DNA of 60,506 bases. Source: an uncultured Gammaproteobacteria bacterium (GTDB lineage Bacteria > Patescibacteriota > Patescibacteriia > CAYYDP01). The notes under the pieces were generated by a model. That model saw nothing but the letters and a program-made list of their open reading frames with translations, was not told where the DNA came from and searched no databases. The stretch is taken from contig CAYYDP010000002.1 in NCBI GenBank assembly GCA_964470645.1, positions 1 to 60,506 of the forward strand, in the 5' to 3' direction. The position numbers and the translations under genes were made by a program. Of this stretch, positions 10,568-59,564 are shown in pieces (position 1 is the first letter of the stretch; the number at the start of each line of letters is the position of its first letter).

Positions 10568-10568
10568 A

Positions 10569-40384: not shown

Positions 40385-40394
40385 ATCCAAATAG

Positions 40395-41266: not shown

Positions 41267-41294
41267 TTGATTGTTCCATAGGTTCAGCACTGCT

Positions 41295-43732: not shown

Positions 43733-43870
43733 TCAATCCAGCACATCCGCCCATACAATCCTCCTCTCATTCTCCCTCTTTCCGTGACCAATCTTCACCC
43801 AAACAATCTTCGCCTCATCGGCATATTGTTTCAAGATATTTGAAATTTTCTCTGCCCACTCAATCAAGAT
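43733..43870 (-). repeat. Duplicated 3' terminus of the tsaC-tsaE gene (gene fragment)
   Basis: It aligns with 47154-47290 at roughly three quarters identity by eye. It translates as IEWAEKISNILKQYADEAKIVWVKIGHGKRENERRIVWADVLD*, compared with the intact IEWAEKVTNILKKYSDEAKIIWVKIGHGKRENERTIEWSDMVV*. It starts immediately after the T9 stop codon, in frame with it. Confidence 0.9.
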
Positions 43871-44620
43871 TCAATGCTGCACTCGTTTCCAATGATCCTC
43901 AAAGACATTTTGCAACAATTCAACCATCGCTTTATTCTCAATCATGACTCCGACGGCATCCGCGTACGAAAAGAGATAAATTCGATTCCCCACAAGATAC
44001 ATGCCAGCTTTTTGCGGCTTCATATTGAGTCTTTTAATTTCGCGTCCGTATCGGCTTGAGTCATCGACAATATTGAAATCATCTCTCCCCTCCCCGACGA
44101 ATAATTTCGTCTTCGTACCATATCGGTGGCGCTTGCGAACAAACGTATATAAAAACTTTCCGAGCGTCTCCCGGAAGGTATTTACGCCATATCCACGAAA
44201 TTCTTTCACGCCTCCCACGCGATGCTGCCTCAATATGTCCTCAAATAACCGAATAAGACCCATTCGTCCCTCATAATATTCCACCTTCGGAAATTCCGGA
44301 GGTTGTTTTTGCTTTGAACGAAGTATGGACATCTCCTCAGCGAGAGATTGCTTAACATTTTCAATACTTTTCTTCTGATTTTCTAATAATTCTTCAAGAC
44401 GACTAACGTCTGCAAAAAATGATTTTACGCCGTTTTCATTACTTTGTTCTACAAGCTCTCTTCGAACAAGGTTCTTGAGAATCGAATATGTGGTCTGGCG
44501 TGGAAGACCGACTGACTTCGCGAGCGATGAAACTCCCATTTTCCCCAGGGTAATGAGCGAAACGTAAACTTTGGACTCTTTATCCGATAATCCTAAAAGT
44601 TGAAGCGATTTTTTAAGCAT
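43871..44620 (-). CDS. TrmB-like regulator, paralog T9
   Basis: The wHTH is LSDKESKVYVSLITLGKMGVSSLAKSVGLPRQTTYSILKNLVRRELV. Confidence 0.8.
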   Translation of the reverse strand: MLKKSLQLLGLSDKESKVYVSLITLGKMGVSSLAKSVGLPRQTTYSILKNLVRRELVEQSNENGVKSFFADVSRLEELLENQKKSIENVKQSLAEEMSILRSKQKQPPEFPKVEYYEGRMGLIRLFEDILRQHRVGGVKEFRGYGVNTFRETLGKFLYTFVRKRHRYGTKTKLFVGEGRDDFNIVDDSSRYGREIKRLNMKPQKAGMYLVGNRIYLFSYADAVGVMIENKAMVELLQNVFEDHWKRVQH

Positions 44621-44690
44621 ATTGAGGTGACGACGAAACACTTCGTCAAAGTATATTGTATTTCAAAACGAAAAGCAATAGTTTGACCTT

Positions 44691-44981
44691 ATGGAATTTT
44701 GGAATCTTAATATTAATAACCATAAAGAACAGCTTCCAGCATTACAACGTCTTGGCAAAGACTTCCTAGGGCGTTTCGGAAACGCATTCCGCGTTTATGA
44801 TTTTCTCGAAAAAACTCAAGATTTGGAACCATACACAAAGGATGAGCTGTACGTCCTATTTGTGAGAGGTAACCGGCTGTTAAAACGTCTTACTACATCG
44901 AAAGCTCCGGTAGTTCAATCATTACTGATCGAACTTAATAATACAATACGATTCATTGAACAACGATTAAAAAACAACTAA
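44691..44981 (+). CDS. Hypothetical protein
   Basis: It is a clean 96-aa ORF placed first in the unit divergent from T9. No motif was recognised. Confidence 0.4.
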   Translation: MEFWNLNINNHKEQLPALQRLGKDFLGRFGNAFRVYDFLEKTQDLEPYTKDELYVLFVRGNRLLKRLTTSKAPVVQSLLIELNNTIRFIEQRLKNN

Positions 44982-44986
44982 TTACT

Positions 44987-45997
44987 ATGGCTTGCTCAAT
45001 CGCAGTCAATATACCGCTTCAAAGGCTTCGTAAACATCTTGGACTCCCTGAACAGTGCCACTCGAGCATTCGTTCCGAGCGCTGTCTTCATGGACTACCG
45101 TCAGGAGGAGTAGGAGCAAACGGAATCATTGGCGCTGCATTCGGATACTGCCAAGGATTAGTAAACAGATCCACCGAAGGACCGGCGGAGCATACCAATC
45201 TCGTCACAAAGACTCTTGAAGAGATCCACGCACCATGGAACCGAAGCCATGAATTATTCTGGGGTTACAAACCCGAGACAATGTCGGCGACAGAATTCAT
45301 CGAACTAGCAATCAGACCACTGGAAAAAGATGGGAGAGTTCCGGTATTGATTACCGGACTCGACCCGTCAGAAGATCGGGCTGAGATTGAAACCATTTTC
45401 AATGCCAAGCCGAAACTTGCTGAAGGAGAAACTATGCTCGTGAGACTGATCCTGAGCAACGAGAAATCAATAAACGCCGTCGTTGAACTTATTCGTAAAA
45501 TCATCCAAAACTCGGAAGTGAAATCGAAAATGCCCCAACTCTGGCCCCTTTTGCAAGGGCATTTAACCATTGTCCAATGGAATCAATTAAAAACTACATT
45601 GGGCAATTTTTGGAAATATGTAAACGTGGCGATCAATCCCTTCACTCCCCCGGAAATCATAACTGAAATAGAGCGTCAAGTGACTGTTGCGCAAATTGTC
45701 GTGGGGAATGAGTTTGGGATCACAGATGATGTGATCAATATCATTCCGGGAAATGATGTTTCGAATTCGCTCAAGGACAAAAAATATTCGTTAAAAGATT
45801 ATTTCACTACACTTCTATCTCTCGACACAACTCCGACACTGATCGTTTGTGGCCCGAGCAAACCGGAATGGAAGCCGGATGAAAACAAAAGACAACTCTC
45901 AAAACTTCTCATGTTAGTCAAAAAGTATGTCAATGAAATTCTTTGGAAAACCGTGTGTTCTGAACGCCAGAAACTGTTATGGGAATTACAAGCGTAA
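44987..45997 (+). CDS. Hypothetical protein
   Basis: It is a 336-aa ORF tightly linked to the flanking plus-strand genes. No motif was recognised. Confidence 0.45.
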   Translation: MACSIAVNIPLQRLRKHLGLPEQCHSSIRSERCLHGLPSGGVGANGIIGAAFGYCQGLVNRSTEGPAEHTNLVTKTLEEIHAPWNRSHELFWGYKPETMSATEFIELAIRPLEKDGRVPVLITGLDPSEDRAEIETIFNAKPKLAEGETMLVRLILSNEKSINAVVELIRKIIQNSEVKSKMPQLWPLLQGHLTIVQWNQLKTTLGNFWKYVNVAINPFTPPEIITEIERQVTVAQIVVGNEFGITDDVINIIPGNDVSNSLKDKKYSLKDYFTTLLSLDTTPTLIVCGPSKPEWKPDENKRQLSKLLMLVKKYVNEILWKTVCSERQKLLWELQA

Positions 45998-46013
45998 TAA
46001 CTTTGTTAACCAT

Positions 46014-47150
46014 ATGAACAAATCATATAAATGGATCGGGGTCATTGTTTTCTTAGCTTTAGTTATTTTCGGAGTATCGCTTATTGGATCAAAAAACAAA
46101 CCCAAAAACCAATCAACAATTACTATCGGAGGATTATTTCCATTCACGGGAGTCAGCGCATCATTTGGAGAACGCGCAAAACATGGAATGGAATTGGCCT
46201 TGGAAAAAGTGAATAGTGAATATCCTTTTGAGTTGAAGGTGATCTATGAGGACGACAAAGGCGAGTCAGCTGCCGCTGTTGCAGCGGCAAGGAAGCTCAT
46301 GGACATAGACAGAGTGAATATTATTATCGGAACGGCAAAGTCAGACCCAATGCTCGCAGTCGCGCCAATTACAGAAGCCGACAAGGTTATTTTATTCACT
46401 CCGATTGCCGGAGCTGCCGCCATTTCGCAAGCGGGCGATTATGTGTTTCGTAATCTCGAGGTGCCTGCGGCGCATGGAAAAGGGTCAACAGCGTTCTTAA
46501 AAAGCAAGGGCGTTACACGAGTAGCTCTGTTTACAGCTCAAGCATCAAACGCGCAAAGTTATGGTAAGGCGTTCCGCGACCACACAGAACAAGCGGGCGT
46601 CGCCATTGTATACTCAGCTGAGTATCCTAGCACTGAAAATGATTTTCGAACGAATATCCTGAAAGCAAAACAAGAAAACATTGATGCGTTTTACCTCGCG
46701 GTAGCGACTGGCAAAGATTCTGGTATTGCGACCAAACAAATTCGAGAAAGCGGATTTGCCGACACCATCATGGCAAGCGTCGCGAGTGAATCGCAGGAGT
46801 TTCTGGATTCCGCAGGTTCCGCGGCAGAAGGAGTGTTCGTTTCCTCAGCTACGTTTAATCCCAATGATCCGGTTGCAAAAGGATATACGGAGCAGTTCCG
46901 TGTTCGATATGGAAAAGAAAGCGACGGATTTGCGGCAAATGCCTATGACGCTGTCATACTCACCGCAAAATCAATCGAACACTGCAAGAACGATACGAAT
47001 ACCGACTGTATTCGTGATTATCTCTATAACGTGAAAGACTATCCAGGTGTTGGCGGTAAAACAACTTTTGACCAGAATGGAGACGTGATCAAGCCCGTAC
47101 AAATCAAAGAGGTCAAGAACGGAAAATTTGTTTCCATTGAGCTTCGGTAA
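46014..47150 (+). CDS. Membrane-anchored LivK-type solute-binding protein, P4
   Basis: A TM anchor is followed by ITIGGLFPFTGVSASFGERAKHGMELA and VIYEDDKGESAAAV. ATG at 46014. Confidence 0.85.
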   Translation: MNKSYKWIGVIVFLALVIFGVSLIGSKNKPKNQSTITIGGLFPFTGVSASFGERAKHGMELALEKVNSEYPFELKVIYEDDKGESAAAVAAARKLMDIDRVNIIIGTAKSDPMLAVAPITEADKVILFTPIAGAAAISQAGDYVFRNLEVPAAHGKGSTAFLKSKGVTRVALFTAQASNAQSYGKAFRDHTEQAGVAIVYSAEYPSTENDFRTNILKAKQENIDAFYLAVATGKDSGIATKQIRESGFADTIMASVASESQEFLDSAGSAAEGVFVSSATFNPNDPVAKGYTEQFRVRYGKESDGFAANAYDAVILTAKSIEHCKNDTNTDCIRDYLYNVKDYPGVGGKTTFDQNGDVIKPVQIKEVKNGKFVSIELR

Positions 47151-47153
47151 CTA

Positions 47154-48242
47154 TCAGACCACCATATCCGACCATTCAATCGTTCGCTCATTCTCTCGCT
47201 TCCCATGTCCAATCTTCACCCAAATGATCTTTGCCTCGTCGGAGTATTTCTTTAGGATATTTGTTACCTTCTCTGCCCATTCGATGGCGAACACTGCGCC
47301 GGAGTCAATAAGTTTGGCAAATCCAAGGTCCAAAAATTCTTGATCCGAAAACATGCGCCAGGTGTCGATGTGAATGAGTTTATATTTTTTGCTCCCATGC
47401 TTGAACACATAGTCTCGTTCGAGAATAAACGTGGGAGAATTCACCCGTTCTTTCACCCCGAGCGCCCGCGCAACTCCCTTCGTAAACTGTGTCTTCCCTG
47501 CACCCAAATTCCCTTGAAGCGCAAAAATGACCGACTTGAATCCAAGATAGTGTTTGTATTGATTCATGAGTTTCTCTCCCAGCGCAATGGTTTCCTCCTG
47601 TGATTTCGTGTTTTGGTGATTTCGTGTTTTTGTAAACTTGATTTCTCCCTGCCTCAAGATCGTCGCGTCGTTGAGTGTGGTATCTACCACAGTCGAAGGT
47701 TCGCGAATGGGCAGTTGCCCCGCATCCAAAACCAAATCAATAAGTTTCTTTTGTTTCGCCGAGATGTTATTGAAAATATCCTTAATGTGGTACGGGCGTT
47801 TTTTATACGACGCATTAGCAGACGTGGAAGTAATAGGTTTCCCAAATGTTTTCACGATTTTCAGAATTAACGGATAATCCGGAATCCTGATCCCGAGCGT
47901 TCCCAGTTCTGATTCTACTCCTTTCGCAACATTCCCCTTGCTCTTTGAAACAACTGTTACGGGTCCTGGGAGCAATGTCCGATAGATATTCTCTGCTGTT
48001 TTGTTGATGCGAACAAATTTTGCCGCCATATTTTTATCCGCGCAGGCAATCGAAAGCGGCTTCCCTTCCCGACGAGCTTTATACTTCAAAAGTTTATTCA
48101 CTGCTTCCTGATTTGTCGCATCAACCCCGATTCCATACAGTGTCTCTGTTGGATACACAACAAGTCCCCCCTCCTTGAGGACTTCAATGGTTTTCTTAAC
48201 CACTTCCGATTCTTTCGTTTTTTTGAGATTCAGGGTGAGCAT
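47154..48242 (-). CDS. Fusion of L-threonylcarbamoyladenylate synthase (TsaC/Sua5 YrdC domain) and TsaE ATPase
   Basis: The N-terminal YrdC motifs are VVYPTETLYGIGVDA and KGKPLSI. The C-terminal TsaE P-loop is LQGNLGAGKTQFTKGVARALGV, followed by SPTF. Confidence 0.85.
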   Translation of the reverse strand: MLTLNLKKTKESEVVKKTIEVLKEGGLVVYPTETLYGIGVDATNQEAVNKLLKYKARREGKPLSIACADKNMAAKFVRINKTAENIYRTLLPGPVTVVSKSKGNVAKGVESELGTLGIRIPDYPLILKIVKTFGKPITSTSANASYKKRPYHIKDIFNNISAKQKKLIDLVLDAGQLPIREPSTVVDTTLNDATILRQGEIKFTKTRNHQNTKSQEETIALGEKLMNQYKHYLGFKSVIFALQGNLGAGKTQFTKGVARALGVKERVNSPTFILERDYVFKHGSKKYKLIHIDTWRMFSDQEFLDLGFAKLIDSGAVFAIEWAEKVTNILKKYSDEAKIIWVKIGHGKRENERTIEWSDMVV

Positions 48243-48245
48243 ACT

Positions 48246-48989
48246 TTAAGTAACAGTTACGGGTTCAGACTTCTCCCACATCATGTCAAAATAATTCTGA
48301 AACACCTTTACAAAATCCGAATCACGAATTTCAATAATCCTAGGCGGGTCGGTCACGGCTTGCAAAATAACAGTATCATGAACCACATTGAAATCACCCA
48401 AAAACTCACCTTCACGTTTCCAAACTCGATACTCGGTGAGGTCAGGATATTTTTTCAGCATATCAAGCTCGCTTTGGGTGATGGAAAAATGAATGGTTTT
48501 CCAAAAAATTCTTTTTCGTAATCTAAGCTCTAAATATTTTTTATAGTTTTTCCCCATCAGCGCGATCCACTGTTCGTTGGGAAGCACTCCCACCGCGTAG
48601 TCAACAGTGCCTTCGGGAATGCGCTCAAGCGACTGAATCCAGTAGTCACGGTAGCTTTCGATTCCCTCATACACGATCATCTGTTGGTGTACTTTATGCT
48701 GATAGGTTTTCACCTCTTCCATAATCCCAGAAACAATACTCTCTTTTCTTTTTACCTGAGTCATTAAGCTTGCCGGATCGGTAATTTGAAACTGCCAAAC
48801 TCCGCTTCGAATCAATTTTGTTGCGTATCCTTGGTTAACAAGATGATCAAGAGATTGGTAAACGAGATTTCGGTGTAAGTCGATTTTATTGATAATATGA
48901 CCGGCCCTGCAAGGCCCGAATCGAACAAGCGCCTCATAAACCAAGGCGTCGTTTTTTGTCATTCCTAATGTTTGAAGCTCTTTTAACAT
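48246..48989 (-). CDS. TrmB-like regulator, paralog T10
   Basis: The wHTH is MTKNDALVYEALVRFGPCRAGHIINKIDLHRNLVYQSLDHLVNQGY. Its stop lies 3 nt from the tsaC ATG. Confidence 0.8.
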   Translation of the reverse strand: MLKELQTLGMTKNDALVYEALVRFGPCRAGHIINKIDLHRNLVYQSLDHLVNQGYATKLIRSGVWQFQITDPASLMTQVKRKESIVSGIMEEVKTYQHKVHQQMIVYEGIESYRDYWIQSLERIPEGTVDYAVGVLPNEQWIALMGKNYKKYLELRLRKRIFWKTIHFSITQSELDMLKKYPDLTEYRVWKREGEFLGDFNVVHDTVILQAVTDPPRIIEIRDSDFVKVFQNYFDMMWEKSEPVTVT

Positions 48990-49147
48990 ATCCAGTTCTG
49001 TCACAAGAAAGTATACGTTAAAACAGCTATTATGTAAAAAGTAGTTATATTAGCATAAATTATATAATATAAAATATAAATATTGTCATCATAATTTATT
49101 TGATAAGTATCAATGTTCCTTATTATGATTCTTGTATTAACGTTTTT

Positions 49148-50299
49148 ATGACTTCAAAACACACAAATCTCTGCAAGAACTTACTGGTGCTTCTGGCTGC
49201 TCTGCTTGTTATTATTGGAATTGTACTCATCAACAATAGTTCTGGAACGATACCGGAAAACAATCCGCTAGTAACGATTGGGTTCGTAACCCCACTCTCT
49301 GGTCCGTTTGCAGAATGGGGGACTTCTATACGAAACGGAATGGAGATTGCTTTAAAAGAAACCAAACACCAATTTCGCGTGAACTATGAAGACGACGTAT
49401 GTGATCCGAAAAACGCAGTAACCATTGCGAATAAACTTTTTTCTGTTGATAAAATCAAGATCATCATCGGTCCTGGATGTATTGACGGGTTAAAAGCTGT
49501 TGCCCCTCTTGCCGAACAACACAAGGCACTTCTCTTTTCCACTGGTCTCCTTGACGATGGTGTATTTACCGAAAACAAGAACGTCATTAATTTAGCAAAC
49601 CAAATCTCCACAGAAGCAAGGTATTTAGCGGCCTATCTCAAGACTCAGCCTATAAAAAAAGTAGCTATTGTACACGGAACAAATCTCTTTGGGGAAGAGC
49701 TTGGAAACCGACTTCCTGATTTTCTAAACGAATACAGTATCATGGTTACCTCTACAAATTCAACCAGCCTTGATGAAACCGATTTCAAAACAATCATACT
49801 TTCCATTTTCAAAAATAAACCTGACGCGATTTTTATTCACCAAGGTGAAGTACAAATCGGTACATTCGCAAAACAACTCCGAGAGCTCGGTCACACAACA
49901 CAGGTATTCAGTTACTACGGAACTGAGTCACAATCAGTATTGAAAACAGGTGGAAACGCGCTTGAGGGAGTGAAATATACCTACCCAGTAAATTCCGAAG
50001 AATCATCACCGGGGGCGGTAAGGTTTGAGCAACGGTACGCTCAACGGTTTCCTCATCAAATCCCTTCGGCGACCTCGCGCTTTATCTATGACGGTATGAT
50101 ACTCTTGGATCAAGCTCTTGACACTTGCGGAAGCGAAAATGCTAAATGTATTGCGTTCTTTTTCAAACATTTTGGCACCTATCGCGGCATCTCCGGCGAT
50201 ATGACCTTCAATAATGATGGTTCGATCACAAGACCATTCGGTATCAAAGAAGTTCGGAATGGAAAATTTGAATGGGTGGAGAAAAGGATTGAATTGTAA
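49148..50299 (+). CDS. Membrane-anchored LivK-type solute-binding protein, P5
   Basis: A TM anchor is followed by VTIGFVTPLSGPFAEWGTSIRNGMEIA. ATG at 49148. Confidence 0.8.
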   Translation: MTSKHTNLCKNLLVLLAALLVIIGIVLINNSSGTIPENNPLVTIGFVTPLSGPFAEWGTSIRNGMEIALKETKHQFRVNYEDDVCDPKNAVTIANKLFSVDKIKIIIGPGCIDGLKAVAPLAEQHKALLFSTGLLDDGVFTENKNVINLANQISTEARYLAAYLKTQPIKKVAIVHGTNLFGEELGNRLPDFLNEYSIMVTSTNSTSLDETDFKTIILSIFKNKPDAIFIHQGEVQIGTFAKQLRELGHTTQVFSYYGTESQSVLKTGGNALEGVKYTYPVNSEESSPGAVRFEQRYAQRFPHQIPSATSRFIYDGMILLDQALDTCGSENAKCIAFFFKHFGTYRGISGDMTFNNDGSITRPFGIKEVRNGKFEWVEKRIEL

Positions 50300-50319
50300 T
50301 TGTTAGTTTTTTAGAACGG

Positions 50320-50453
50320 AACATTTGTGAAGGTTTCGGAATAGACCTCACTCAACAACGCCCCGTTCTACGATTCGCGCGAATTGAAGAACGATTCTAT
50401 TAAAGGAGTGGGGCTTCAGCTTCTTTCATTTTCTTGAGATTCAAGATGAGCAT
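50320..50453 (-). repeat. Duplicated tsaC 5' terminus, copy r1 (decayed)
   Basis: The minus strand reads atgctcatcttgaatctcaagaaaatgaaagaa (MLILNLKKMKE), compared with the intact MLTLNLKKTKE. Weaker, frame-broken similarity extends to about 50320. Its ATG lies 1 nt from the T11 stop. Confidence 0.75.
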
Positions 50454-50454
50454 A

Positions 50455-51204
50455 TCAATCCTCGATTGAATTCCATATTAGTTGGAACAACTCTCGTCCC
50501 ATTTGTACGACACTGGGGTTTTCAATGGCAATGGCGGAGATTGGGTTAAATTGATGAATGACGAGTAGATTGGGCGTGACAATCAGGTTTGTGGCGAGCG
50601 ACGTGTTTGGCGGAAGAATTTTAATGTGTTCGTGATAATTTTTTTCAAAACCCTTCCGTCGTCGCGCTTCTTCAGTGTCTTGCAGAAGCAACCGAGTGTC
50701 AATATTGAGTTTAGAACGGCAATTAAGATACTGTTCAAAGTATTCCCGATCCTCTTTTCTCCACTCTTCCGTATCCGATATCGCCCAGTAGTACTCTTTT
50801 GGTTTCAATTCTTCTAAGATTCGGTCATAAACCGTTTTCACCAATTCCAAACCTTCGTAGTGTTTGATAGTGCTCGATTCTCCCTTGAGGTGGAAGAGCG
50901 CGGAAAACTCCGGCAGTATGTGCTGGAATTTTTGTTTGCGGATATCAAGGAGATTTCCGACGTGTTCCGGGTTTTCGGCTATGAATCTGCGCTTTACTCC
51001 TTTGATTTCAACTCGAATAAATCCTTGCCTCATCAAGGATTCAATGATTGAATACACTGTTGTTCGTTTGATCCCAGTTTCTTTTGAAAGCGAGAGAACC
51101 GATGAGGAACCGAGCGATAAACAAGCGACATACACTCGTGCCTCGTGGTCGCTCATCCCGATGTCAATAAGCGATGAAACAAGCTTTTCGTGATGATTGA
51201 TCAT
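50455..51204 (-). CDS. TrmB-like regulator, paralog T11
   Basis: The wHTH is MSDHEARVYVACLSLGSSSVLSLSKETGIKRTTVYSIIESLMRQGF. Confidence 0.8.
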   Translation of the reverse strand: MINHHEKLVSSLIDIGMSDHEARVYVACLSLGSSSVLSLSKETGIKRTTVYSIIESLMRQGFIRVEIKGVKRRFIAENPEHVGNLLDIRKQKFQHILPEFSALFHLKGESSTIKHYEGLELVKTVYDRILEELKPKEYYWAISDTEEWRKEDREYFEQYLNCRSKLNIDTRLLLQDTEEARRRKGFEKNYHEHIKILPPNTSLATNLIVTPNLLVIHQFNPISAIAIENPSVVQMGRELFQLIWNSIED

Positions 51205-51234
51205 AAAATGTCTGAAAAAGGTCCGACATTATCT

Positions 51235-51263
51235 ATACTAAAATAAGGTAAGAATATTGTCAA
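51235..51263 (-). promoter_or_regulatory. Sigma70-like promoter for T11
   Basis: On the minus strand: TTGACA (51258-51263), a 17-nt spacer, then TAGTAT (51235-51240). Confidence 0.5.
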
Positions 51264-51350
51264 ATTAAGTCGAATGTCGACAGATATGACAGATTTTCGT
51301 TTCTAAGGTACGTTTATTAGTCGAAAGGTAAATTCTGGAGACGAACTATT

Positions 51351-52475
51351 ATGAAAAAGTATATCATTCCATTTATCATATTGATCATGCTTGTGATCGG
51401 CGCTGCGTTAGCGGTATTTCCTGAAAAACAAAAGGGAGCAATCAAAATCGGGGTCGTCGCAACGCTCACGGGTGTTGGGGCGTACCAAGGACAACAAGAG
51501 CTCCGGGGACTTGAGTTGGCGCGAGATGAAATAAATTCGAAAGGAGGAATAAAAGGAAAGCAAGTCAAGCTTTTTGTTGAAGACAGCAAAGCGGATCCAA
51601 AAGAAGCTGTCAGGGTATTTCAAAAACTGATTTCAGTAGATGGAGTAAAGTTCGTTATTGGTGACTCGTGGTCTTCAACGACCGTTGCGCTTGTTCCGCT
51701 TGCAAATGAAAATAAAGTTCTACTGATTTCTCCATTGGCTCTCTTGAATGAGTTAAGCGCGGATGATTACTTTTTCAGAACCATCCCAGCAGTGCAGAAA
51801 ATGATGGAGACGCTAGCACAACACGCATACGGATCACTTGAGTCCAGGAGTGTTGGCATTTTGCGCCAGCAGACGCCATTTGGCGTCGAACACACGAAAT
51901 ATTTCAAAGAAGAATTCGAAAAACTTGGTGGAATTGTTGTTGGCGAGGAAAGCTTCCCGCTCTCGCAAACCGATGTTCGGGCTGAAATCACAAAATTGAA
52001 ATCCACAAACCCCGATACCGTTCTCAATCTTCATGGTACTGGTCCGATTTTGGGAAATCTCATGAAGCAGGCAAAAGAATTGGGGTTGGATGTGAATTGG
52101 ATTTCTTCGTTCGGGGCTCAAAATATCCCGCTTGTAAAAGAATTTGGAACGGTGGTGGAAGGGTTGATCTACCCATATCCGTTTGACAGTGATGCAAACA
52201 TTAAAAGCATACAGAATTTCAACAATCAGTATCAAGAGCGTTTTAATGAATTACCGGACATGGTCGCCGCGAACTCGTATGATGCTTTGATGGTATTGGC
52301 GCAAGCGATTAATAACGCTGGTGAAGATACGTTTAAAGTAAAACAGCGGCTACTGAAGACCAAAGATCACAACGGTGCAAGCGGAGAATTTTCGTTCGAT
52401 CAAAACGGTGACGTCGAAAAACCCATTATCATCAAACAAATCCATGATGGGAAGTTCGTGAAGGTTTCGGAGTAA
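51351..52475 (+). CDS. Membrane-anchored LivK-type solute-binding protein, P6
   Basis: A TM anchor is followed by IKIGVVATLTGVGAYQGQQELRGLELA and LFVEDSKADPKEAV. Confidence 0.85.
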   Translation: MKKYIIPFIILIMLVIGAALAVFPEKQKGAIKIGVVATLTGVGAYQGQQELRGLELARDEINSKGGIKGKQVKLFVEDSKADPKEAVRVFQKLISVDGVKFVIGDSWSSTTVALVPLANENKVLLISPLALLNELSADDYFFRTIPAVQKMMETLAQHAYGSLESRSVGILRQQTPFGVEHTKYFKEEFEKLGGIVVGEESFPLSQTDVRAEITKLKSTNPDTVLNLHGTGPILGNLMKQAKELGLDVNWISSFGAQNIPLVKEFGTVVEGLIYPYPFDSDANIKSIQNFNNQYQERFNELPDMVAANSYDALMVLAQAINNAGEDTFKVKQRLLKTKDHNGASGEFSFDQNGDVEKPIIIKQIHDGKFVKVSE

Positions 52476-52499
52476 GATTCAACGGAAGGAACAATGTGC

Positions 52500-53687
52500 C
52501 TAGATCATGCTCGCGGGTATAAAACCCAATTGTTTTGAAAACGACTTTGAGATAACGTAGGTATGTTTGAGTTTCAACGATTTTGCCACAGATTGAGCCT
52601 TCGCGTAATCTTGCGGGACCGCGGTCTGCTTCACCTCAAGAGCAACCGATTCTTTCGGAAGCACAAAATCAATTTCAATCCCAGTCCTCCGTTGATAATA
52701 ATGGATAGGCTCATAGGATGGTTTCAGGTTTTGAAAAACAGCATTTTCCAAAAGCTGGCCGTCTCCGACGTTTGCGAAATGATTCACGATCCCAACATCG
52801 CAGGCATACAGCTTCTTTGTCCCACTCACCTCTCGATCACGGTTCCGGCTAAAGGGAGTAATGAGATGGATAAAATACGTTCCTTCAAGAAACGACAGAT
52901 ACGAGTATACCGTTTCCCGGGAAACCCCTACTTCAACCGATAATTTGCTGATCTCTAGCTTTGAACCAACCCGCTGCAAAAGCAATAGCAACAAATCCCT
53001 CAGAGCGGTAAGATTTTTCACATCCGCCAACGTCTTCACGTCTTTTTCAAAATAGGATTTAAAAATATCGTTCAATCGGATCTTTTTTTGCTCCCAGGTT
53101 TTGGCAAGTACCACAGACGGAAACCCACCAAACTGGAGATACTCATCGTATAACTTTTTTGATCGCTCGAATTGGACTTCGGTTTTTTGTACGTGCTTTT
53201 CCGGGAACGAACCGCCCCACGGCATGGGAACGCGCTTAAACTCAAGAAACTCCTGAAACGTTAATGGATAGAGTTCAAAAACCGCTTTTCGTCCTGCGAG
53301 ACTCTCAGGAAATACATTCTTAAAATAATAACTGGACGAACCAGTAAGAAAAAACTTAACATCATGATGATCTTGCAAATACTTGATCGCCTTTACAATA
53401 TTTGGCATTGCCTGAATTTCATCAAGAAAAACATACGCCTTTTTCTTTGGGCTGATTCCGTACGACGCGAGGTTTGCCAAGATATTATTGTAATCGGTTT
53501 CCTCAAAAATCTTTTGCTCAACCGGGTTCTCAATGTCCAAAAATACTTTGTTATCACTCTTAATCTCGTCAAAGATTTGGCGATAGAGGGTTGTTTTCCC
53601 AACCTGTCGCATACCAGTGAGAACAATAATTTCTTTGGTCGATAACTGCTTTCTCAGCTTTGGTAATAATGATCGTTGAAATATCAT
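52500..53687 (-). CDS. AAA-family ATPase with DUF4143-like C-terminal domain
   Basis: It has the Walker A motif IIVLTGMRQVGKTTLY and is a paralog of 23264-24490. Confidence 0.7.
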   Translation of the reverse strand: MIFQRSLLPKLRKQLSTKEIIVLTGMRQVGKTTLYRQIFDEIKSDNKVFLDIENPVEQKIFEETDYNNILANLASYGISPKKKAYVFLDEIQAMPNIVKAIKYLQDHHDVKFFLTGSSSYYFKNVFPESLAGRKAVFELYPLTFQEFLEFKRVPMPWGGSFPEKHVQKTEVQFERSKKLYDEYLQFGGFPSVVLAKTWEQKKIRLNDIFKSYFEKDVKTLADVKNLTALRDLLLLLLQRVGSKLEISKLSVEVGVSRETVYSYLSFLEGTYFIHLITPFSRNRDREVSGTKKLYACDVGIVNHFANVGDGQLLENAVFQNLKPSYEPIHYYQRRTGIEIDFVLPKESVALEVKQTAVPQDYAKAQSVAKSLKLKHTYVISKSFSKQLGFIPASMI

Positions 53688-53695
53688 ATATCTTT

Positions 53696-53724
53696 ATCTT
53701 ACATTATGACATAAATATTGTCAA
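53696..53724 (-). promoter_or_regulatory. Sigma70-like promoter, near-leaderless AAA ATPase mRNA
   Basis: On the minus strand: TTGACA (53719-53724), a 17-nt spacer, then TAAGAT (53696-53701). The ATG at 53687 is 8 nt after the -10 box. The region also holds the inverted repeat atattgtc-N11-gacaatat (53715-53741). Confidence 0.5.
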
Positions 53725-53772
53725 CCATCAGTCGACAATATAGTCATTCTCAAATCAACAAATGAACAATAA

Positions 53773-53820
53773 TCCGATGGTTTTCTTAATCACCTCCGAT
53801 TCTTTCGTTTTTTGAGATTG
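53773..53820 (-). repeat. Duplicated tsaC 5' terminus, copy r2 (truncated before the ATG)
   Basis: gttttcttaatcacctccgattctttcgttttttgagatt is nearly identical to 57385-57427. Confidence 0.85.
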
Positions 53821-53833
53821 ATAGTCAATGGTC

Positions 53834-53861
53834 TTGACATAAACTATATATAGAGTATCAT
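53834..53861 (+). promoter_or_regulatory. Sigma70-like promoter with no downstream ORF
   Basis: TTGACA (53834-53839), a 16-nt spacer, then TATCAT (53856-53861). Confidence 0.5.
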
Positions 53862-53867
53862 GTTATT

Positions 53868-53958
53868 GAAAATTCACAGCCGAATACTTCCCTTATGGTA
53901 GGTGTCCCGACTTGTCGGGAATAGGCTGTTCCCCCTATCGACGGGGGTTTTTGTTTTT
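53868..53958 (+). ncRNA. Candidate small RNA (~90 nt)
   Basis: It runs from the predicted TSS to an intrinsic terminator, ccccctatcgacggggg + tttttgttttt (53931-53958). An internal hairpin is tcccgac ttg tcggga. The only ORF on this strand (53912-54136) starts inside the candidate RNA, has no recognisable motif and is antisense to the DUF3800 pseudogene. It is convergent with that pseudogene. Confidence 0.4.
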
Positions 53959-54519
53959 ACAAATGTTTAATTATACCTTTGCTTTCTGCCCGGCGATAAC
54001 AATCTGCTACTTTTTCATTTCCCTCAAGATAGTCGCGAACAAAGCCAGCTATTGCGTCAGCCAATCGAATGAAAGGGTCATTTTCATCTTTCCTAACACC
54101 ACGAACCTTTCTCACACGGACGTTAAGTCTTTTTAAACCCGCTGAAAAGCGATGTCGTTCCGATCGTTTGAGTCCATCAACAAACACAGTTGTTTCATAC
54201 AACCCTTGAGATTTACGCAAAATCGCTTTCGCGGTTGAAAATATCGTGAGATCAAAATACGCCTTACTCTCGGAATAATACGAATAAAAAATTGTTTCAC
54301 GAAGATGCTTATTTTCCAGTACTGCCCGATGTATGCCAACCTCCGTTTTTCATTCGTATGAAACCACTTCCGATTCCCTTTGCAACTTCGCCTCTCAACA
54401 CCCCCAAGATGTTGTTGAATCAACTCGCGGTCGCGATCCAACACCACCACTGATACGAGAAACAGTTTTCCCTCGGTATCTTGTCCAGATTCATCAACAT
54501 AGCAGTATAGTTTTTGCAT
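53957..54519 (-). pseudogene. DUF3800-family gene split by a frameshift
   Basis: The N-terminal ORF (54133-54519) starts MQKLYCYVDESGQD. The C-terminal ORF (53957-54220) contains PFIRLADAIAGFV. The second frame is open back to a homopolymer, T5 on the plus strand at 54346-54350. One extra base there would fuse the two into one protein of about 187 aa. Confidence 0.65.
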
Positions 54520-54550
54520 ACGATCAGTGTATCAAACTCAATGTGAGTAA

Positions 54551-54618
54551 TTCAATGCTTCCACGGTCTTCTTGATGACTTCCCCTTCTTTCGTTTTTCT
54601 GAGATTCAGGATGAGCAT
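54551..54618 (-). repeat. Duplicated tsaC 5' terminus, copy r3
   Basis: ttcaatgcttccacggtcttcttgatgacttccccttctttcgtttttctgagattcaggatgagcat includes the ATG (54616-54618). It lies 4 nt from the T12 stop. Confidence 0.8.
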
Positions 54619-54622
54619 AGTT

Positions 54623-55369
54623 TTATGTTAACGGGTCACTCTGATCCCATAAAAACTGCCAAAGTTGTTTTTGCAGTTTCACAATCTTCAAATCTTCAAT
54701 GGCTGTACTTGCGAGCGGTTCAAACGAATCAAAGACAGCCATCCGATCATTCAACAGGAATCCGACTTTATTCGAGATATCAAATCCCGATGGAAGAAAC
54801 CGAATTTCCTGCATCCCCGCGCGGTATTTTTTCTTAACATATTCGAGTGTTTTCTCGGTTCGTGGCATTAGATTGCGAACACACCCGCCGTGACGCTTAA
54901 GAATCTCAAACATATGCTTATTGTGTGCTTCACCAAATATTTTCCAATACTCCTCAATAAACACGAGTCCAGAAACCTCTTTTGATCTCATCATGACATC
55001 ATGAATGTATTCAAACTGCTTTCGACCCTCATACAGGGTTGTCCTGCTTTTGGGCTCATGAATCCGTTTTTGGTTCACCTCGAGTGCAATCTGCTTTGCA
55101 AGTTCCGTCTTCTCAAGATACCCATAAAGCACAGCTTCAAAACCAAGAGGAATATAAAAATCGATCTTACCCTTCTGAATTTGAGAGACAAGACTTTTTT
55201 GCTTCAACGACTCAACGATGACATACACCGTTGGTCGTTTCAGGCCAGTGCGCTGCGCGAGTTCGGTCATGCGAGCTTCTCCAAGTACAACAAGAGCATT
55301 GTATACCTCAGCCTCTTTTCCGGTAAACCCAAGTTCAGTCAAGCGAAATACGATGTTGGTATTATCCAT
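54623..55369 (-). CDS. TrmB-like regulator, paralog T12
   Basis: The wHTH is FTGKEAEVYNALVVLGEARMTELAQRTGLKRPTVYVIVESLKQKSLV. ATG at 55369. Confidence 0.8.
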   Translation of the reverse strand: MDNTNIVFRLTELGFTGKEAEVYNALVVLGEARMTELAQRTGLKRPTVYVIVESLKQKSLVSQIQKGKIDFYIPLGFEAVLYGYLEKTELAKQIALEVNQKRIHEPKSRTTLYEGRKQFEYIHDVMMRSKEVSGLVFIEEYWKIFGEAHNKHMFEILKRHGGCVRNLMPRTEKTLEYVKKKYRAGMQEIRFLPSGFDISNKVGFLLNDRMAVFDSFEPLASTAIEDLKIVKLQKQLWQFLWDQSDPLT

Positions 55370-55467
55370 AACGACAGTATTAACATAACACAGACAATAC
55401 AAACGTCAATAGATATTGACGTTTATTTACGGCAATTCTTTCCAGAATCCACTCTCTCGCTTATGAT

Positions 55468-56313
55468 ATGACGATTGCACTGAATCTATCTATGGAACCA
55501 TATCTCCCTCCAATCAATAATCAAGAATCAGAATTTGACTTCGAAACTCGTGGAACTCACTATTCTGACGCACACGAACAAATGCCATGGGTACGTGGGG
55601 AAGAAATCAACCAAATCCTTGTGTCTGTTGGTTGTACCGGACCATTGGTTGGGAAAACAATACTCGATTTTGCATGCGGTTCTGGAACCGTTACTATCCC
55701 ATTATCTATCGCAGTTGGGTCGGGGGGTGTCGTATATGCCGCCGATGACTCTGAAACGAATTTTCAAAGACTCAAGAAAAAAGCAGGATCCGAACTCCCG
55801 ATCACTATTCTCCTTTTGAAACCAAATGAAAGGCTCAACGTACAATCGTCTTGCGTTGATGTGGTTGTCTCGCTTGCGGGGATGCATCATGTCCCAAATG
55901 ATGCGCGCCAAGGCATCTTCGTAGAATTTTATCGAGTATTGAAACCAGGCGGCTATGTAGTGATTGGCGATGTGTTGGATCAACGACCAGTACAATCTTA
56001 CTTTGACAACGTGGTTGATAAAGTTTGTTCGACGGGACATCTTCACCGTTTTTTTGATAAAACCCAAATCCAGGAATTATGCGGACAAAGTGGTCTACTT
56101 CTGGAACGGTTCAATGAGGTGTCCACACCTTGGATATTCAATAACGAGAAAGAGGCGGGTGCCTTTCTCCGGACAATTCACGATGCAAAAAAACATTTCA
56201 CACCAGAGTACTGTCTGGCGGAAGCAAAAAAATACCTCGGATGTTCAAATGACGGCGGAATATTCAAACTGAATTGGTCACTCTTTTTCATGACAGCGAA
56301 AAAACAACAATGA
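55468..56313 (+). CDS. Class I SAM-dependent methyltransferase
   Basis: It carries motif I ILDFACGSGTVTIPLSIAVGSGGVVYAADDSE. Confidence 0.75.
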   Translation: MTIALNLSMEPYLPPINNQESEFDFETRGTHYSDAHEQMPWVRGEEINQILVSVGCTGPLVGKTILDFACGSGTVTIPLSIAVGSGGVVYAADDSETNFQRLKKKAGSELPITILLLKPNERLNVQSSCVDVVVSLAGMHHVPNDARQGIFVEFYRVLKPGGYVVIGDVLDQRPVQSYFDNVVDKVCSTGHLHRFFDKTQIQELCGQSGLLLERFNEVSTPWIFNNEKEAGAFLRTIHDAKKHFTPEYCLAEAKKYLGCSNDGGIFKLNWSLFFMTAKKQQ

Positions 56314-57338
56314 TATCATCGAATCTTGATCAGCACGAAAAAATAATTCGCCTTTCAGACCCAAAATCGGGATTACGAGGGTTCATCGCTATTCACAACA
56401 CATCCCACGGACCCGCAACAGGGGGTACGCGCATGATGCCCTATACATCCGAACAAGACGCACTCAATGACGCACTCAAGCTCGCTCGAGCGATGACCTA
56501 CAAATGTGCGCTCGCCGGAGTTCCCTACGGTGGCGGGAAAGGGGTGATCATTGGCGATCCAAAAAAAGATAAGACACAGAAATTGCTACAATCCTACGCT
56601 CAAATCGTAAATTCCCTCAATGGTATATTCACCACCGGCGAAGATGTGGGGATTACACGTGAAGATGCGGAGATCATGACAAAAACATCTCCGTACATTA
56701 ACGGCTTCAGCAAATCAACTGATCCGTCACCTTTTGCCGCCCTGAGTGTGTTTTCTTCAATAAAGAGCGCGGTCAAAATAACCAATAATGAATCGCTTCG
56801 ATATAAAAAAATCGCCGTCAAAGGAATTGGAAAGGTTGGATCTGAACTTATTCGGTTACTCATAAAAACTGGAGCTAAACTCTATGCGGCAGACATTGAT
56901 TCAAAAATAATTACAAAGATACGTCGAGAATTCCCTACAGTAGGGATCGTAGAGACTTCTTCCATTCATCAATTGCCCGTTGACGTCTTTGCTCCCTGTG
57001 CACTGGGAAATGAAATTGCCAAAGAAAACATCTCTGAGATTAAGGCGAAAATAATCTGCGGTAGCGCAAACAACCAACTCTCATCAGAAGCCATCGGAGA
57101 CCAGTTATTTCATCGCGGGATATTGTATATTCCTGACTATCTCGCAAACGCAGGAGGATTGATCAATGCGATCGACACGCGCGAACCGGGTGGGTATCAA
57201 AAAAAACGAGTAATGAGGCGAATAAATTTCCTTCAAAACACATTGCGTACCATTCTTAAGGCGTCGAATATATCCAATATTCCTCCTTATAGAATCGCAG
57301 ATCGTATTGCTGAAGAGAAGATTTCGGAATCAAAATAA
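56310..57338 (+). CDS. Glu/Leu/Phe/Val dehydrogenase family (leucine/valine dehydrogenase-like)
   Basis: GPATGGTRMMPY, AGVPYGGGKGVIIGDP and VKGIGKVGSELIRLL (a Rossmann motif) are present. Its start overlaps the upstream stop as ATGA. Confidence 0.85.
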   Translation: MISSNLDQHEKIIRLSDPKSGLRGFIAIHNTSHGPATGGTRMMPYTSEQDALNDALKLARAMTYKCALAGVPYGGGKGVIIGDPKKDKTQKLLQSYAQIVNSLNGIFTTGEDVGITREDAEIMTKTSPYINGFSKSTDPSPFAALSVFSSIKSAVKITNNESLRYKKIAVKGIGKVGSELIRLLIKTGAKLYAADIDSKIITKIRREFPTVGIVETSSIHQLPVDVFAPCALGNEIAKENISEIKAKIICGSANNQLSSEAIGDQLFHRGILYIPDYLANAGGLINAIDTREPGGYQKKRVMRRINFLQNTLRTILKASNISNIPPYRIADRIAEEKISESK

Positions 57339-57440
57339 CTCTATCGTTGGATACACAACAAGTCCTCCCTTTTTCAAGACTTCAATCGTTTTCTTAATCA
57401 CCTCCGATTCTTTCGTTTTTTTGAGATTCAGGATGAGCAT
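57339..57440 (-). repeat. Duplicated tsaC 5' terminus, copy r4 (longest)
   Basis: About 100 nt align with 48143-48242 at close to nine tenths identity by eye. It translates as MLILNLKKTKESEVIKKTIEVLKKGGLVVYPT. It begins right after the dehydrogenase stop. Confidence 0.9.
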
Positions 57441-57480
57441 ATATTCACTTCAGTATGACATGGTGGTATACTGATCATAT

Positions 57481-58560
57481 ATGTACGATCTTGTTTGCGT
57501 TGGAGATACCACGCTCGATACCTTTTTAAAGGTTCAAGACGCTGCGGTGCATTGCGATCTCAAAAGCAAAAGCTGTGAGCTCTGTTTCAAATACGGAGAA
57601 AAGATTGCCGTTGATGAACTCAGACAAAACCCCGGCGGCAACTCTGCAAACGTTGCTGTTGGAACGGCAACACTTGGAGTCAAAACCGCACTCTACGCGA
57701 TCATTGGGGACGACGATATTGGGCAGAACGTAAAACGGATGATAGGCGAACGCAAGGTTGACACGAAGTACTTGTTGACCAACAAAGGCAAACCGACGAA
57801 TTATTCGACAATTATTAGCTTCAAGGGTGAACGAACGATCCTGGAGATGAAATATCCCGCACACCTAACGTTCTCAACATTCCCAACAACCGATTGGGTA
57901 TATCTTTCTTCTCTTAAACAAGACCCCAAAAGTGTGTACGAGTCACTCGTTCGGTTAAAAAAGAAGATGGGATTCAAGATCGCCTTTAACCCGGGAATGT
58001 TTCAGCTCACTCACCCTTCAAACGATATCGTAACGTTTCTTCCAAATGTAGATGTTCTTATTGTGAATAAAGAAGAAGCGGAGCTATTAGTCCGTAAAGT
58101 CGAAAGTCTCAAGTCGAAAGTCTCATTAAGGAAGTCCAACGACCGCCTCAGATTGACAACGCTACAAGCTACCCGCCTCGCGTCGACAAGCGACAGCGAG
58201 TCGAGGCGGGCAAGCTACAAGCTACAAGCTCGTACTCGTGGTCTCGTCTTCATCACTGATGGTCCCAACGGAGCATATGCGTTTGATGGAGAACGCATGG
58301 TTCACTGCAACACATTTCCTGCACCAAACGTTGTTGACCGAACAGGGGCGGGCGACGCGTTTTCTTCTGGCGTGGTCGCGGGACTCACAAATGAAGTCAG
58401 CTTTCCAGAGGTTATTCGTTGGGGCATGGCTAATTCTGCGGCAGTACTCAAAGAGATCGGCCCCCAAAACGGGCTATTGAATATCTCTGAAATAAGGCGA
58501 ATATTAGCCAATGTAAAGATTTTTCCCGACCTGTTGAAAAAATCTTTACAGAATAGTTGA
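57481..58560 (+). CDS. PfkB-family carbohydrate kinase (ribokinase-like)
   Basis: The N-terminal VCVGDTTLD, GGNSANVAVG and the C-terminal DRTGAGDAFSSGVVAGL are present. It contains an in-frame repeat insertion of about 50 aa. Confidence 0.8.
   Translation: MYDLVCVGDTTLDTFLKVQDAAVHCDLKSKSCELCFKYGEKIAVDELRQNPGGNSANVAVGTATLGVKTALYAIIGDDDIGQNVKRMIGERKVDTKYLLTNKGKPTNYSTIISFKGERTILEMKYPAHLTFSTFPTTDWVYLSSLKQDPKSVYESLVRLKKKMGFKIAFNPGMFQLTHPSNDIVTFLPNVDVLIVNKEEAELLVRKVESLKSKVSLRKSNDRLRLTTLQATRLASTSDSESRRASYKLQARTRGLVFITDGPNGAYAFDGERMVHCNTFPAPNVVDRTGAGDAFSSGVVAGLTNEVSFPEVIRWGMANSAAVLKEIGPQNGLLNISEIRRILANVKIFPDLLKKSLQNS
58097..58232 (+). repeat. Composite in-frame insertion in the PfkB kinase
   Basis: It has aagtcgaaagtctc x2 (58097-58124) and gctacaagct (58161-58170). 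A hairpin cccgcctcg ... cgaggcggg follows (58172-58210), then caagctacaagctacaagct (58211-58230). The last part is the same AGCTACA heptamer as in valS, read on the coding strand, and encodes SYKLQATSYKLQA. Confidence 0.9.
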
Positions 58561-59124: not shown

Positions 59125-59189
59125 TTCAGCCAAAAAACCAGGCGACAATCCTGATGTTTATTAACACAGGCTACAAACGTTGCATCCAT

Positions 59190-59273
59190 GCGGACGTGGC
59201 GAAATTGGTAGACGCACTACCTTGAGGTGGTAACGCCTTCACCGGCATGAGAGTTCGAGTCTCTCCGTCCGCA
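59190..59273 (+). tRNA. tRNA-Leu (anticodon GAG), class II with long variable arm
   Basis: It was folded by hand. The acceptor is gcggacg/cgtccgc with a 3-bp D-stem, and the anticodon loop is ttGAGgt. The T-arm is gagag-ttcgagt-ctctc and the discriminator is A. No CCA is encoded. Confidence 0.85.
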
Positions 59274-59362
59274 TATAGAAATAATATAGTTTGTCTAAAT
59301 GTGGTTCGGGTATGATGAGTTCGCCCGATCATCCGATCGGGCGTCCGGTCGAATGACCGGAC

Positions 59363-59379
59363 GAGTCTCTCCGTCCGCA
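59363..59379 (+). repeat. Second copy of the tRNA-Leu 3' end (17 nt)
   Basis: gagtctctccgtccgca is identical to 59257-59273. The intervening 89 nt hold two strong hairpins (59322-59343, 59343-59362). Confidence 0.85.
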
Positions 59380-59564
59380 TTATTATTTTCATTGGGCGGT
59401 TAGCTTCCACCTACGCCAAGGCTTCGGTGGACAAGCAATTTCAGCGAAAGGCTGATCCGCCTCCGGCGGATGTTCCCCGCCGACAGCTTCGCAGTCAGGC
59501 GGGCCCGTCAAAATGCGTAGCTTTATCGGGGAGCGTTACATTGATCCCACACCTTTCTTACTAA

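Follow-up and report, generated by a model that had tools for sequence, protein, structure and literature searches.

Tycheposons, the tRNA-targeting island builders of Prochlorococcus (Hackl et al., 10.1101/2020.12.28.424599), are integrated successively at one site, newcomers pushing older elements outward and cargo-only remnants being left behind. Full and partial copies of the target flank the element and tandem arrays are formed in a streamlined genome without classical mobile elements; the elements have tyrosine recombinases of their own, and about seven tRNA/tmRNA sites serve as their targets. A protein-coding target is used by e14 and phage 21 at the Escherichia coli icd gene (icd/icdC; Hill et al., 1989, as reported in PMC13626634). 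By that report, the 15-kb prophage e14 brings an integrase and uses one 3' site only. It supplies a replacement end that keeps the gene functional, the displaced fragment stays as a pseudogene at the far end, and synonymous or conservative changes predominate between both copies. In integrons, small cassettes are ordered at one site with recombination-site remnants between them, the newest being nearest to the fixed end. The array adjoins a gene for the tyrosine recombinase IntI, the cassettes end in attC sites (imperfect inverted repeats), and most of them lack promoters and are expressed from a shared Pc promoter. In Campbell-type insertion-duplication and in transformation merodiploids (Johnston et al., 2013, PMC3784515), integration via one stretch of homology leaves a direct duplication on both sides of the insert, and host recombination and DNA uptake suffice. 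The present analysis concerns 60,506 nt of patescibacterial DNA (GenBank assembly GCA_964470645.1, contig CAYYDP010000002.1, positions 1 to 60,506), hereafter the window, in which an essential tsaC-tsaE fusion gene (tsaCE) is preceded by four gene cassettes bounded by copies of the tsaC 5' end.

Repeats were sought with blastn against the whole 60.5-kb window (GC content 43%). Five tsaC 5' copies (A to E), all in direct orientation on the minus strand, were found to bound four cassettes (X1 to X4; Table 1). Both this layout and the contents of the cassettes, the latter checked with Pfam, agree with the original prediction. Copy A is the start of the intact gene. The four displaced fragments (41-96 nt, 83-93% identity) all lie upstream of it, with window-wide E-values of 1e-33 for copy E, 1e-14 for D, 2e-12 for C and 5e-8 for B, and blastn detected no further tsaC 5' copy elsewhere in the window. 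The predicted positions of the copies were right overall; only copy B, placed at 50320-50453, had been drawn too long on the left, since 41 nt of it are homologous. The overlap common to all five copies in the alignment runs from about +12 to +41. Copy E is the longest and best-conserved fragment, as had been noted beforehand. It encodes an open stub of 36 codons, adjoins the gene of a PfkB-family kinase with 40 nt between both start codons, and is the original tsaC start, left beside its native upstream region. On the opposite side of this array, the ATG of tsaC follows the stop codon of T10 by 3 nt and the native upstream region is cut off. As no terminator lies in this gap and promoter-like sites are found upstream of T10 (X1 holds such sites at 49038-49010 minus and 49100-49129 plus), tsaC-tsaE is probably co-transcribed with T10.

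The array resembles a tycheposon island in its successive integrations at one site, in the outward displacement of older elements, in its cargo-only remnants, in the full and partial target copies (here five tsaC copies around four cassettes) and in the streamlined genome without classical mobile elements. It differs in that no recombinase is present and in that the docks are 5' and 3' ends of protein-coding genes, many of them within 60 kb; moreover, the cassettes comprise one to three genes, usually a regulator and a cargo gene. The original prediction had spoken of an integron-like or serial-integration array. Serial integration is borne out by the arrangements in relatives described below. 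The integron likeness is limited to the ordered array of small cassettes at one site, the site remnants between them and the position of the newest cassette. No integrase is encoded in the 60 kb, the ends are neither attC-like nor inverted repeats, intI and an attI/attC structure are lacking, as a common promoter appears to be, and the cassettes have promoter-like sites of their own in divergent orientation. The repeats are copies of a host gene end, that is of tsaC coding sequence, and not element-specific attC sites.

TsaCE relatives were taken from a large protein collection and their contigs were then compared for gene order; orthologs at 82-84% identity were obtained from L028 to L031. 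In L028 and L029 (TsaCE 83% identical), the site is empty: the PfkB gene is directly divergent from tsaCE within a core of ~10 kb (rplS-PfkB|tsaCE-tsaD-MFS-rsmA-valS). The kinase gene is thus the original divergent neighbour of tsaC, as had been proposed. In the window these seven genes keep their order but are spread over 894-59124 (58 kb). The extra DNA, about 48 kb, lies in four gaps, the PfkB|tsaCE gap being occupied by the tsaC array. In L030 (82%, a metagenome-assembled genome from NCBI), a tsaC 5' stub is followed by an intact X3-like DUF3800 gene (188 amino acids) and then by intact tsaCE. In L045 (a Logan contig), a T10 homolog (77%) is followed, 5 nt past its stop codon, by a tsaC stub (70 nt) and then by DUF3800. 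T10 therefore precedes X3 in L045 and follows it in the window. In all three genomes, the junction of X3 with the tsaC fragment falls between +66 and +72 despite three different upstream neighbours (T12, a non-T region and a T10-like gene), which indicates that the junction travels with the cassette. Relatives thus have none, one or several of these cassettes in differing orders, always with tsaC 5' fragments between them. That each arrival re-creates the gene start, another of the earlier claims, is seen in L030: its functional TsaC starts with an X3-type N-terminus (MSRPQTIY...) and a resident-type stub (MSILNLKK...) is displaced upstream. The history of serial integration at a formerly empty PfkB|tsaC site, each cassette bringing its own gene start, is well supported by these comparisons. 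The P6-T11 pair of X2 is kept as a unit in L025 (72.6% nucleotide identity), where the homology stops at both stop codons and the surroundings are unrelated.

Other searches for relatives gave little. The window TsaCE, PfkB and T11 were not on record in exact-protein look-ups, and a T12 search gave no close homolog. A genome-contig scan with TsaCE returned only relatives of <=59% identity, in which synteny was lacking and neither T nor P genes occurred within 10 kb. A metagenome scan with a codon-degenerate pattern of the tsaC N-terminus gave one chance match (contig of 24% GC), and the tsaC core was not found in the viral contigs searched. In L046 (67% relative) the context is different and no repeats are present; the repeats of L007, L009 and L015 are intergenic and of another kind. 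In L031 (84% relative, 3-833), the stop codon of a gene other than T precedes the ATG of tsaC by 7 nt; by eye its product looks like a different helix-turn-helix (HTH) regulator, Lrp/AsnC-like, and would be one more regulator positioned immediately upstream of tsaC.

Differences between the members of each repeat pair were counted in the reading frame of the intact gene. Synonymous and nonsynonymous differences, respectively, numbered 6 and 4 for tsaC A-E, 6.5 and 5.5 for E-D, 5 and 3 for E-B, 7.5 and 7.5 for the rsmA 5' pair, 19 and 11 for the tsaE 3' pair, whose displaced copy keeps its frame and stop codon, and 38 and 10 for the alr 5' pair of the distant contig L040. The pooled count is ~89 synonymous to 58 nonsynonymous differences, with a ratio of nonsynonymous to synonymous divergence (pN/pS) of 0.19 (P about 1e-9 in a pooled binomial test against >=0.5, the expectation for an in-situ duplication with one copy decaying neutrally); for the msrA and gene X pairs the reading frame of the count affects 4 of the ~148 pooled differences. 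The displaced tsaE copy is 77% identical to the working copy, and orthologs from other species are 75-79% identical. Such synonymous-biased, ortholog-like divergence means that one copy of each pair evolved inside a working gene of another lineage. The repeats are not target-site duplications.

The alignment of the copies also reveals a point of exchange. Copy D is identical to E at first (19/19 positions) and then only at 36/47 (77%). Copy C is its reciprocal: it begins with an X3-type start (MSRPLTINLKK...), which matches the functional tsaC start of L030, and continues with resident-type sequence to +58, 43/45 positions being identical to E from +13; a 1-nt deletion is present within an A-run. 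Such a mosaic would remain after one exchange, near +12 to +19, of the resident gene with a tsaC 5' end borne by a cassette. Copy E reaches +96 and D only +66, so that X4 entered the intact gene before X3. The arrival order X4, X3, X2, X1, with the newest cassette adjoining tsaC, is likewise well supported at the sequence level. Insertion of X3 into the D stub with a duplication of its own was considered and rejected, since C is 96% like E and only ~78-80% like D. When alleles were grouped by attached cassette, no clean clusters were obtained, the sequences being too short and mosaic. As at icd, the integration is at the end of a protein-coding gene and a replacement end is supplied: the L030 TsaC start is of X3 type with a resident stub upstream, D and C form the mosaic, and the divergence is biased to synonymous sites. 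Compared with e14 as reported, the units here are small (0.7-3.3 kb) and without an integrase, four of them are stacked at one 5' end, and many genes serve as targets.

The original prediction had spoken of an attachment sequence re-created by each arrival. A special status of tsaC in this respect is not supported by the rest of the window, where the same layout is found at the 5' ends of rsmA and of a DNA-alkylation-repair gene, at the 3' ends of msrA and tsaE, inside gene X and near T7, with no common core. At least six further repeat-flanked cassettes are present, and nearly every significant direct repeat flanks a cassette that contains a T gene. At least 10 insertions in the window share one rule, namely that the end of the target gene comes along in copy with the cassette. 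One boundary of each repeat coincides with a start or stop codon of the target, and a distance of 1-6 nt separates the T stop codon from the repeat in most cassettes. The displaced rsmA copy follows the T3 stop codon. The last 132 nt of tsaC-tsaE form the working half of a second repeat pair, and in L030 a different insert, with its own tsaE fragment, occupies the same 3' end. Gene X, which is non-essential, is split by the T8 cassette, and an intact gene X start follows tsaCE in L031. Beyond close relatives, two distant Patescibacteria show the same arrangement: in L040 a 301-nt alr 5' repeat lies around MurL and a 234-amino-acid gene, its stub following a T gene, and in L032 a 237-nt repeat lies around a 228-amino-acid gene.

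Further partial gene copies were observed. A 32-nt piece of gene X (97%, 7353-7384 versus 42370-42400) lies 2 nt past the stop codon of T1, in sense orientation relative to T1, and derives from a point ~40 nt upstream of the split made by the T8 cassette; its sequence suggests that a cassette, on moving, took along part of the site it had occupied before. The working start of tsaD is preceded, 53 nt upstream, by a 42-nt copy of the 5' end of this gene (31989-32030 versus 31894-31935). This copy resembles the tsaD start of L028 more closely (85.7%) than the working one does (80%) and is possibly the scar of a lost cassette. An 86-nt tRNA gene at 59189-59274 (Rfam 50.7 bits; anticodon ambiguous in ARAGORN) is followed after 106 nt, at 59353-59380, by 28 nt that repeat its 3' end (86%); this further gene-end stub comes with ~200 nt that are extra relative to L028. 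In L040, a perfect 72-nt inverted repeat is present at 8585-8656 and 11398-11469, one arm at the MurL end of the repeat-flanked cassette and the other 2.8 kb upstream.

Mobility genes were sought with Pfam in about 60 open reading frames of the window (>= ~95 amino acids), and no integrase, resolvase or DDE transposase was detected. Neither the cassettes nor those related loci that were examined gave an integrase, and no excisionase was found in any cassette. Compared with shuffled controls, no motif common to the seven repeat families emerged; terminal inverted repeats were absent from the ten cassettes, whose ends gave no inverted-repeat signal above such controls either. The repeats vary in length and inner boundary, from 41 to 301 nt. 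DDE transposons and insertion sequences (IS), in contrast, have a transposase, terminal inverted repeats and short fixed duplications, where the repeats here are long, variable and diverged beforehand. In two assemblies, L026 and L027 (213-1601), an IS66-family transposase gene occupies the P6 position beside a T11 homolog damaged at its N terminus, so that IS elements of the classical kind do occur in the lineage.

The T proteins have ~250 amino acids, and T10, T11 and T12 carry a TrmB winged helix-turn-helix (wHTH; Pfam PF01978, E-values from 5e-9 to 2e-13). In the AlphaFold2 model of T11 (pLDDT 92), the wHTH is followed by a long helix and a PLD-like C-terminal domain without HKD motif. The best PDB matches were TrmBL2, an archaeal chromatin protein (5bpd/5bqt, Foldseek E-value 1e-13), and TrmB (3qph). 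No catalytic His or Lys is conserved in the C-terminal domain among 50 sequences. All 12 T genes are divergent to their cargo genes, strong promoter-like matches were predicted in every divergent T/cargo intergenic region, and T is a predicted regulator. A role of T as the recombinase was rejected on account of its TrmBL2 DNA-binding fold, the lack of conserved catalytic residues and the existence of cassettes without T (X3 and those of L040 and L032). Since the latter have the same repeat-flanked structure, T is not required for it.

The comparisons show the history of insertion, the empty site, the foreign origin of one member of each repeat pair and the mosaic left by a crossover. Host homologous recombination is the process that we infer, since no recombinase, terminal inverted repeat or common core was found; the form of the intermediate, circular or linear, is likewise inferred. 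An additive cassette array, built by four successive integrations in the first ~100 nt of tsaC through host homologous recombination, is given slightly better than even chances. A cassette, typically a divergent pair of a TrmBL2/TrmB-like regulator and a cargo gene, would arrive with its own tsaC 5' end next to the T stop codon, inherited from an earlier host of a related lineage. A single, Campbell-like crossover in the shared segment (about +12 to +41), by insertion of a circle or a linear equivalent, would bring the cassette to a position upstream of tsaC. The 5' end that it carries would become the working gene start, transcribed from the T promoter, and the previous start would be left as a stub. 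The exchange would be made by the host on DNA taken up from relatives, the gene-end copies serving as portable homology arms, and cassettes would dock in this general way at the 5' and 3' ends of many genes via the carried copy. Duplications made by transformation, with one donor fragment pairing with two chromatids, are documented (PMC3784515). Insertion-duplications and merodiploids of this kind are known from the laboratory or as large IS-bordered duplications and are not described as a natural, recurrent route of array building.

Several points weigh against homologous recombination by the host. RecA recombination on segments of 41-130 nt and 77-91% identity should be very inefficient, the longest identical runs in the repeats being only 13-32 nt. 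The model does not account for the first acquisition of a gene end by a cassette or for the 1-6 nt between T stop codon and repeat in most cassettes, among them the tsaE 3' case, which offers no obvious advantage in expression. The gene X piece behind T1 hints at movement to non-homologous sites. The window covers 60 kb of the genome, and a recombinase acting in trans from elsewhere is possible. The evidence is entirely comparative, between species-level relatives; no excised circle or within-population polymorphism was observed.

Such a recombinase would make the tsaC 5' end a true attachment (att) site and the cassettes integrase-less satellites, the integrase being encoded elsewhere. Short repeats of 77-91% identity would be recombined more readily by a site-specific enzyme than by RecA, and the tandem array with the newest cassette beside the target, the cassette-borne junction kept in three genomes and a crossover confined to the short shared segment (+12 to +41) would all be expected; tycheposon islands also hold cargo-only remnants between partial target copies. 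We nevertheless regard this explanation as rather unlikely, because no integrase was found in the 60 kb, the cassettes included, or at those related loci that were examined, because at least seven repeat families without a shared motif would call for many specificities, and because the lengths and inner boundaries of the repeats range from 41 to 301 nt.

One-ended homologous invasion with illegitimate end-joining is doubtful to a somewhat greater degree. In this process, a homology-facilitated illegitimate recombination or a break repair that copies foreign DNA, a break or replication problem at the gene end would be repaired from DNA of a relative with a cassette upstream of the same gene, and non-homologous joining of the other end would duplicate the gene end. 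The process predicts a new illegitimate junction at each event, but the X3 junction is the same in three genomes with different upstream neighbours; it also needs donors with a cassette already upstream of tsaC, which shifts the problem of origin one step back. It accounts for one foreign, synonymously diverged copy, for homology ending exactly at an ORF (open reading frame) boundary and for the differing inner boundaries (41, 58, 66 and 96 nt). A long stretch of homology in the gene body would suffice as anchor, and duplications by interchromatid pairing in transformation are documented (PMC3784515).

Transposition-like insertion with unusually long target-site duplications, the working copy being later replaced by alleles of other lineages, is very improbable. 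The synonymous bias of nearly all older pairs would demand an allelic replacement after each event, the repeats vary in length, and neither a transposase nor terminal inverted repeats were found. Copies D and C overlap and yet differ, whereas C and E share 96% identity, and three genomes have the same X3 junction. These points stand against the near identity of the youngest pairs (gene X, 70 nt, 97%; msrA, 53 nt, 96%), the disruption of gene X as by a transposon and the gene X fragment carried by T1 to an unrelated site. Local tandem duplication of a unit of T, P and tsaC fragment, or an assembly artefact joining strain variants via a shared repeat, would suit the direct orientation and the similar T and P content of X1 and X2 but is scarcely credible, given that the T paralogs (12 in the window) are 17-28% and the P paralogs (6) 22-32% identical in protein, T10, T11 and T12 being only 17-21% identical beside tsaC fragments that are 83-93% identical in DNA, and that junctions of a tsaC stub with a cassette body, impossible in single-cassette strains, recur in independent assemblies (L030, NCBI; L045, Logan; L040, JGI).

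Table 1. Positions of the tsaC array and of the other repeat-flanked cassettes in the window. T, TrmB-type gene; P, gene of a Peripla_BP_6 solute-binding protein.
Feature	Position	Strand	Description
rsmA 5' repeat, 82 nt	8321-8402 / 10488-10569		brackets T2 (8404-9159, minus) and P1 (9293-10486, plus)
DNA-alkylation-repair gene 5' repeat, 55+ nt			encloses T4 and methyltransferase; protein homology back to ATG
msrA 3' repeat, 53 nt, 96%			encloses methyltransferase, P3, T6 and AbiE pair
Repeat near T7, 42 nt			encloses T7 and methyltransferase
Gene X internal repeat, 70 nt, 97%	40294-42328		T8 (40395-41159, minus) and queuosine-salvage gene (41271-42257, plus)
tsaE 3' repeat, 132 nt, 77%	43733-47153		T9 (43871-44641, minus) to P4 (45927-47150, plus), inserted at tsaCE 3' end
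Displaced tsaE 3' fragment	43733-43864		frame and stop codon intact
Intact tsaC-tsaE fusion, 362 amino acids	47154-48242	-	Pfam Sua5_yciO_yrdC (2e-48) and TsaE (2e-29)
Copy A	ATG at 48242	-	first ~100 nt of intact tsaC-tsaE
X1 (newest)	48246-50413		divergent T10 (48246-49004, minus; TrmB-type) and P5 (49100-50299, plus; Peripla_BP_6)
Copy B, tsaC -1 to +41	50414-50454	-	85% identical to A, E-value 5e-8; directly after T11 stop codon
X2	50455-53766		T11 (50455-51204, minus), P6 (51351-52475, plus), AAA_14/DUF4143 ATPase (52500-53687, minus)
Copy C	53767-53840	-	A/E homology +12 to +58 (53767-53819); different ATG at 53840, L030 type
X3	53841-54556		frameshifted DUF3800 (53957-54519, minus; weak Pfam hit) and small promoter-to-terminator unit (plus)
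X3 candidate small RNA unit	~53866-53958	+	conserved in L030
Copy D, tsaC -4 to about +66	54557-54622	-	directly after T12 stop codon
X4 (oldest)	54623-57344		T12 (54623-55402, minus), methyltransferase (55468-56313, plus), Glu/Leu/Phe/Val-type (ELFV) dehydrogenase (56274-57338, plus); Pfam
Copy E, about -1 to +96	57345-57441	-	91% identical to A, 88.7% to L031 gene
PfkB-family kinase	57481-58560	+	Pfam PfkB 8e-42

Some of the cassette contents deserve mention. The small unit of X3 (53834-53958, +) has TTGACA-16-TATCAT, a conserved 5' segment (ATTGAAAATTCACAGCCGAATAC) and an intrinsic terminator. A closing stem (ACAGCC/GGCTGT) surrounds a variable interior, and all elements are shared with L030 (about 7540-7700, reverse strand; minimum free energy -30.8, z -3.1). 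The hairpin region beside DUF3800 gave no Rfam match at gathering or permissive thresholds, and a PDB sequence search with DUF3800 gave no match. Eleven unrelated RNA motifs are tied to DUF3800 genes (Weinberg et al., 2017, PMC5737381), and the unit, by its sequence and predicted structure, may be a further motif of this kind; the DUF3800 gene of the window is also present in L045. The AAA_14/DUF4143 ATPase of X2 has one paralog in the window (23264-24490, +). The six P paralogs are orphans, with no ABC permease or ATPase genes beside them in the window, and in L046 (1-3752) one P gene is found inside a full LivHMGF-type operon. These orphan P genes, each with a T regulator as its partner, may serve a function other than transport. 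Toxin-antitoxin pairs among the cassettes comprise AbiEi/AbiEii (14909-16397 and 28083-28957), a YafQ-like toxin (43297-43731) and Fic/RhuM (33679-34695). A 500-amino-acid open reading frame (32068-33570, +) encodes an N-terminal MarR-type HTH fused to an M20 peptidase with dimerisation domain.

Patescibacteria, or Candidate Phyla Radiation (CPR), have very small genomes in which few mobile elements are recognised, genetic tools for them are lacking, and their gene gain is largely unexplained. The window offers a concrete route of gene gain in such streamlined genomes without an element-encoded integrase. Additive islands built from elements that carry a copy of the target gene end are a known kind of system; the form met here, in Patescibacteria and without an integrase of its own, is apparently widespread. 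It is possible, if doubtful, that the cassettes form an undescribed recombinase-less mobile class in Patescibacteria: a TrmBL2-like regulator and one cargo gene, delimited stop to stop, which would dock at arbitrary gene ends via the carried copy, take over transcription of the target, which is often essential, so that only precise excision would be tolerated, be exchanged among species and be the source of much gene gain. If so, an active dedicated mechanism, possibly through T or a factor in trans, would explain the spacing of 1-6 nt between T stop codon and repeat as well as the non-homologous moves. Judging from gene positions, the essential tRNA-modification genes tsaC-tsaE and rsmA appear to have been placed under the promoters of imported regulators, which could stabilise the cassettes. 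The signature can be searched for in other genomes, as a gene-end stub with the intact gene a few kb away, the two differing mainly at synonymous sites. Insertion-duplication at the ends of essential genes may also provide a design principle for gene delivery to uncultivated bacteria.

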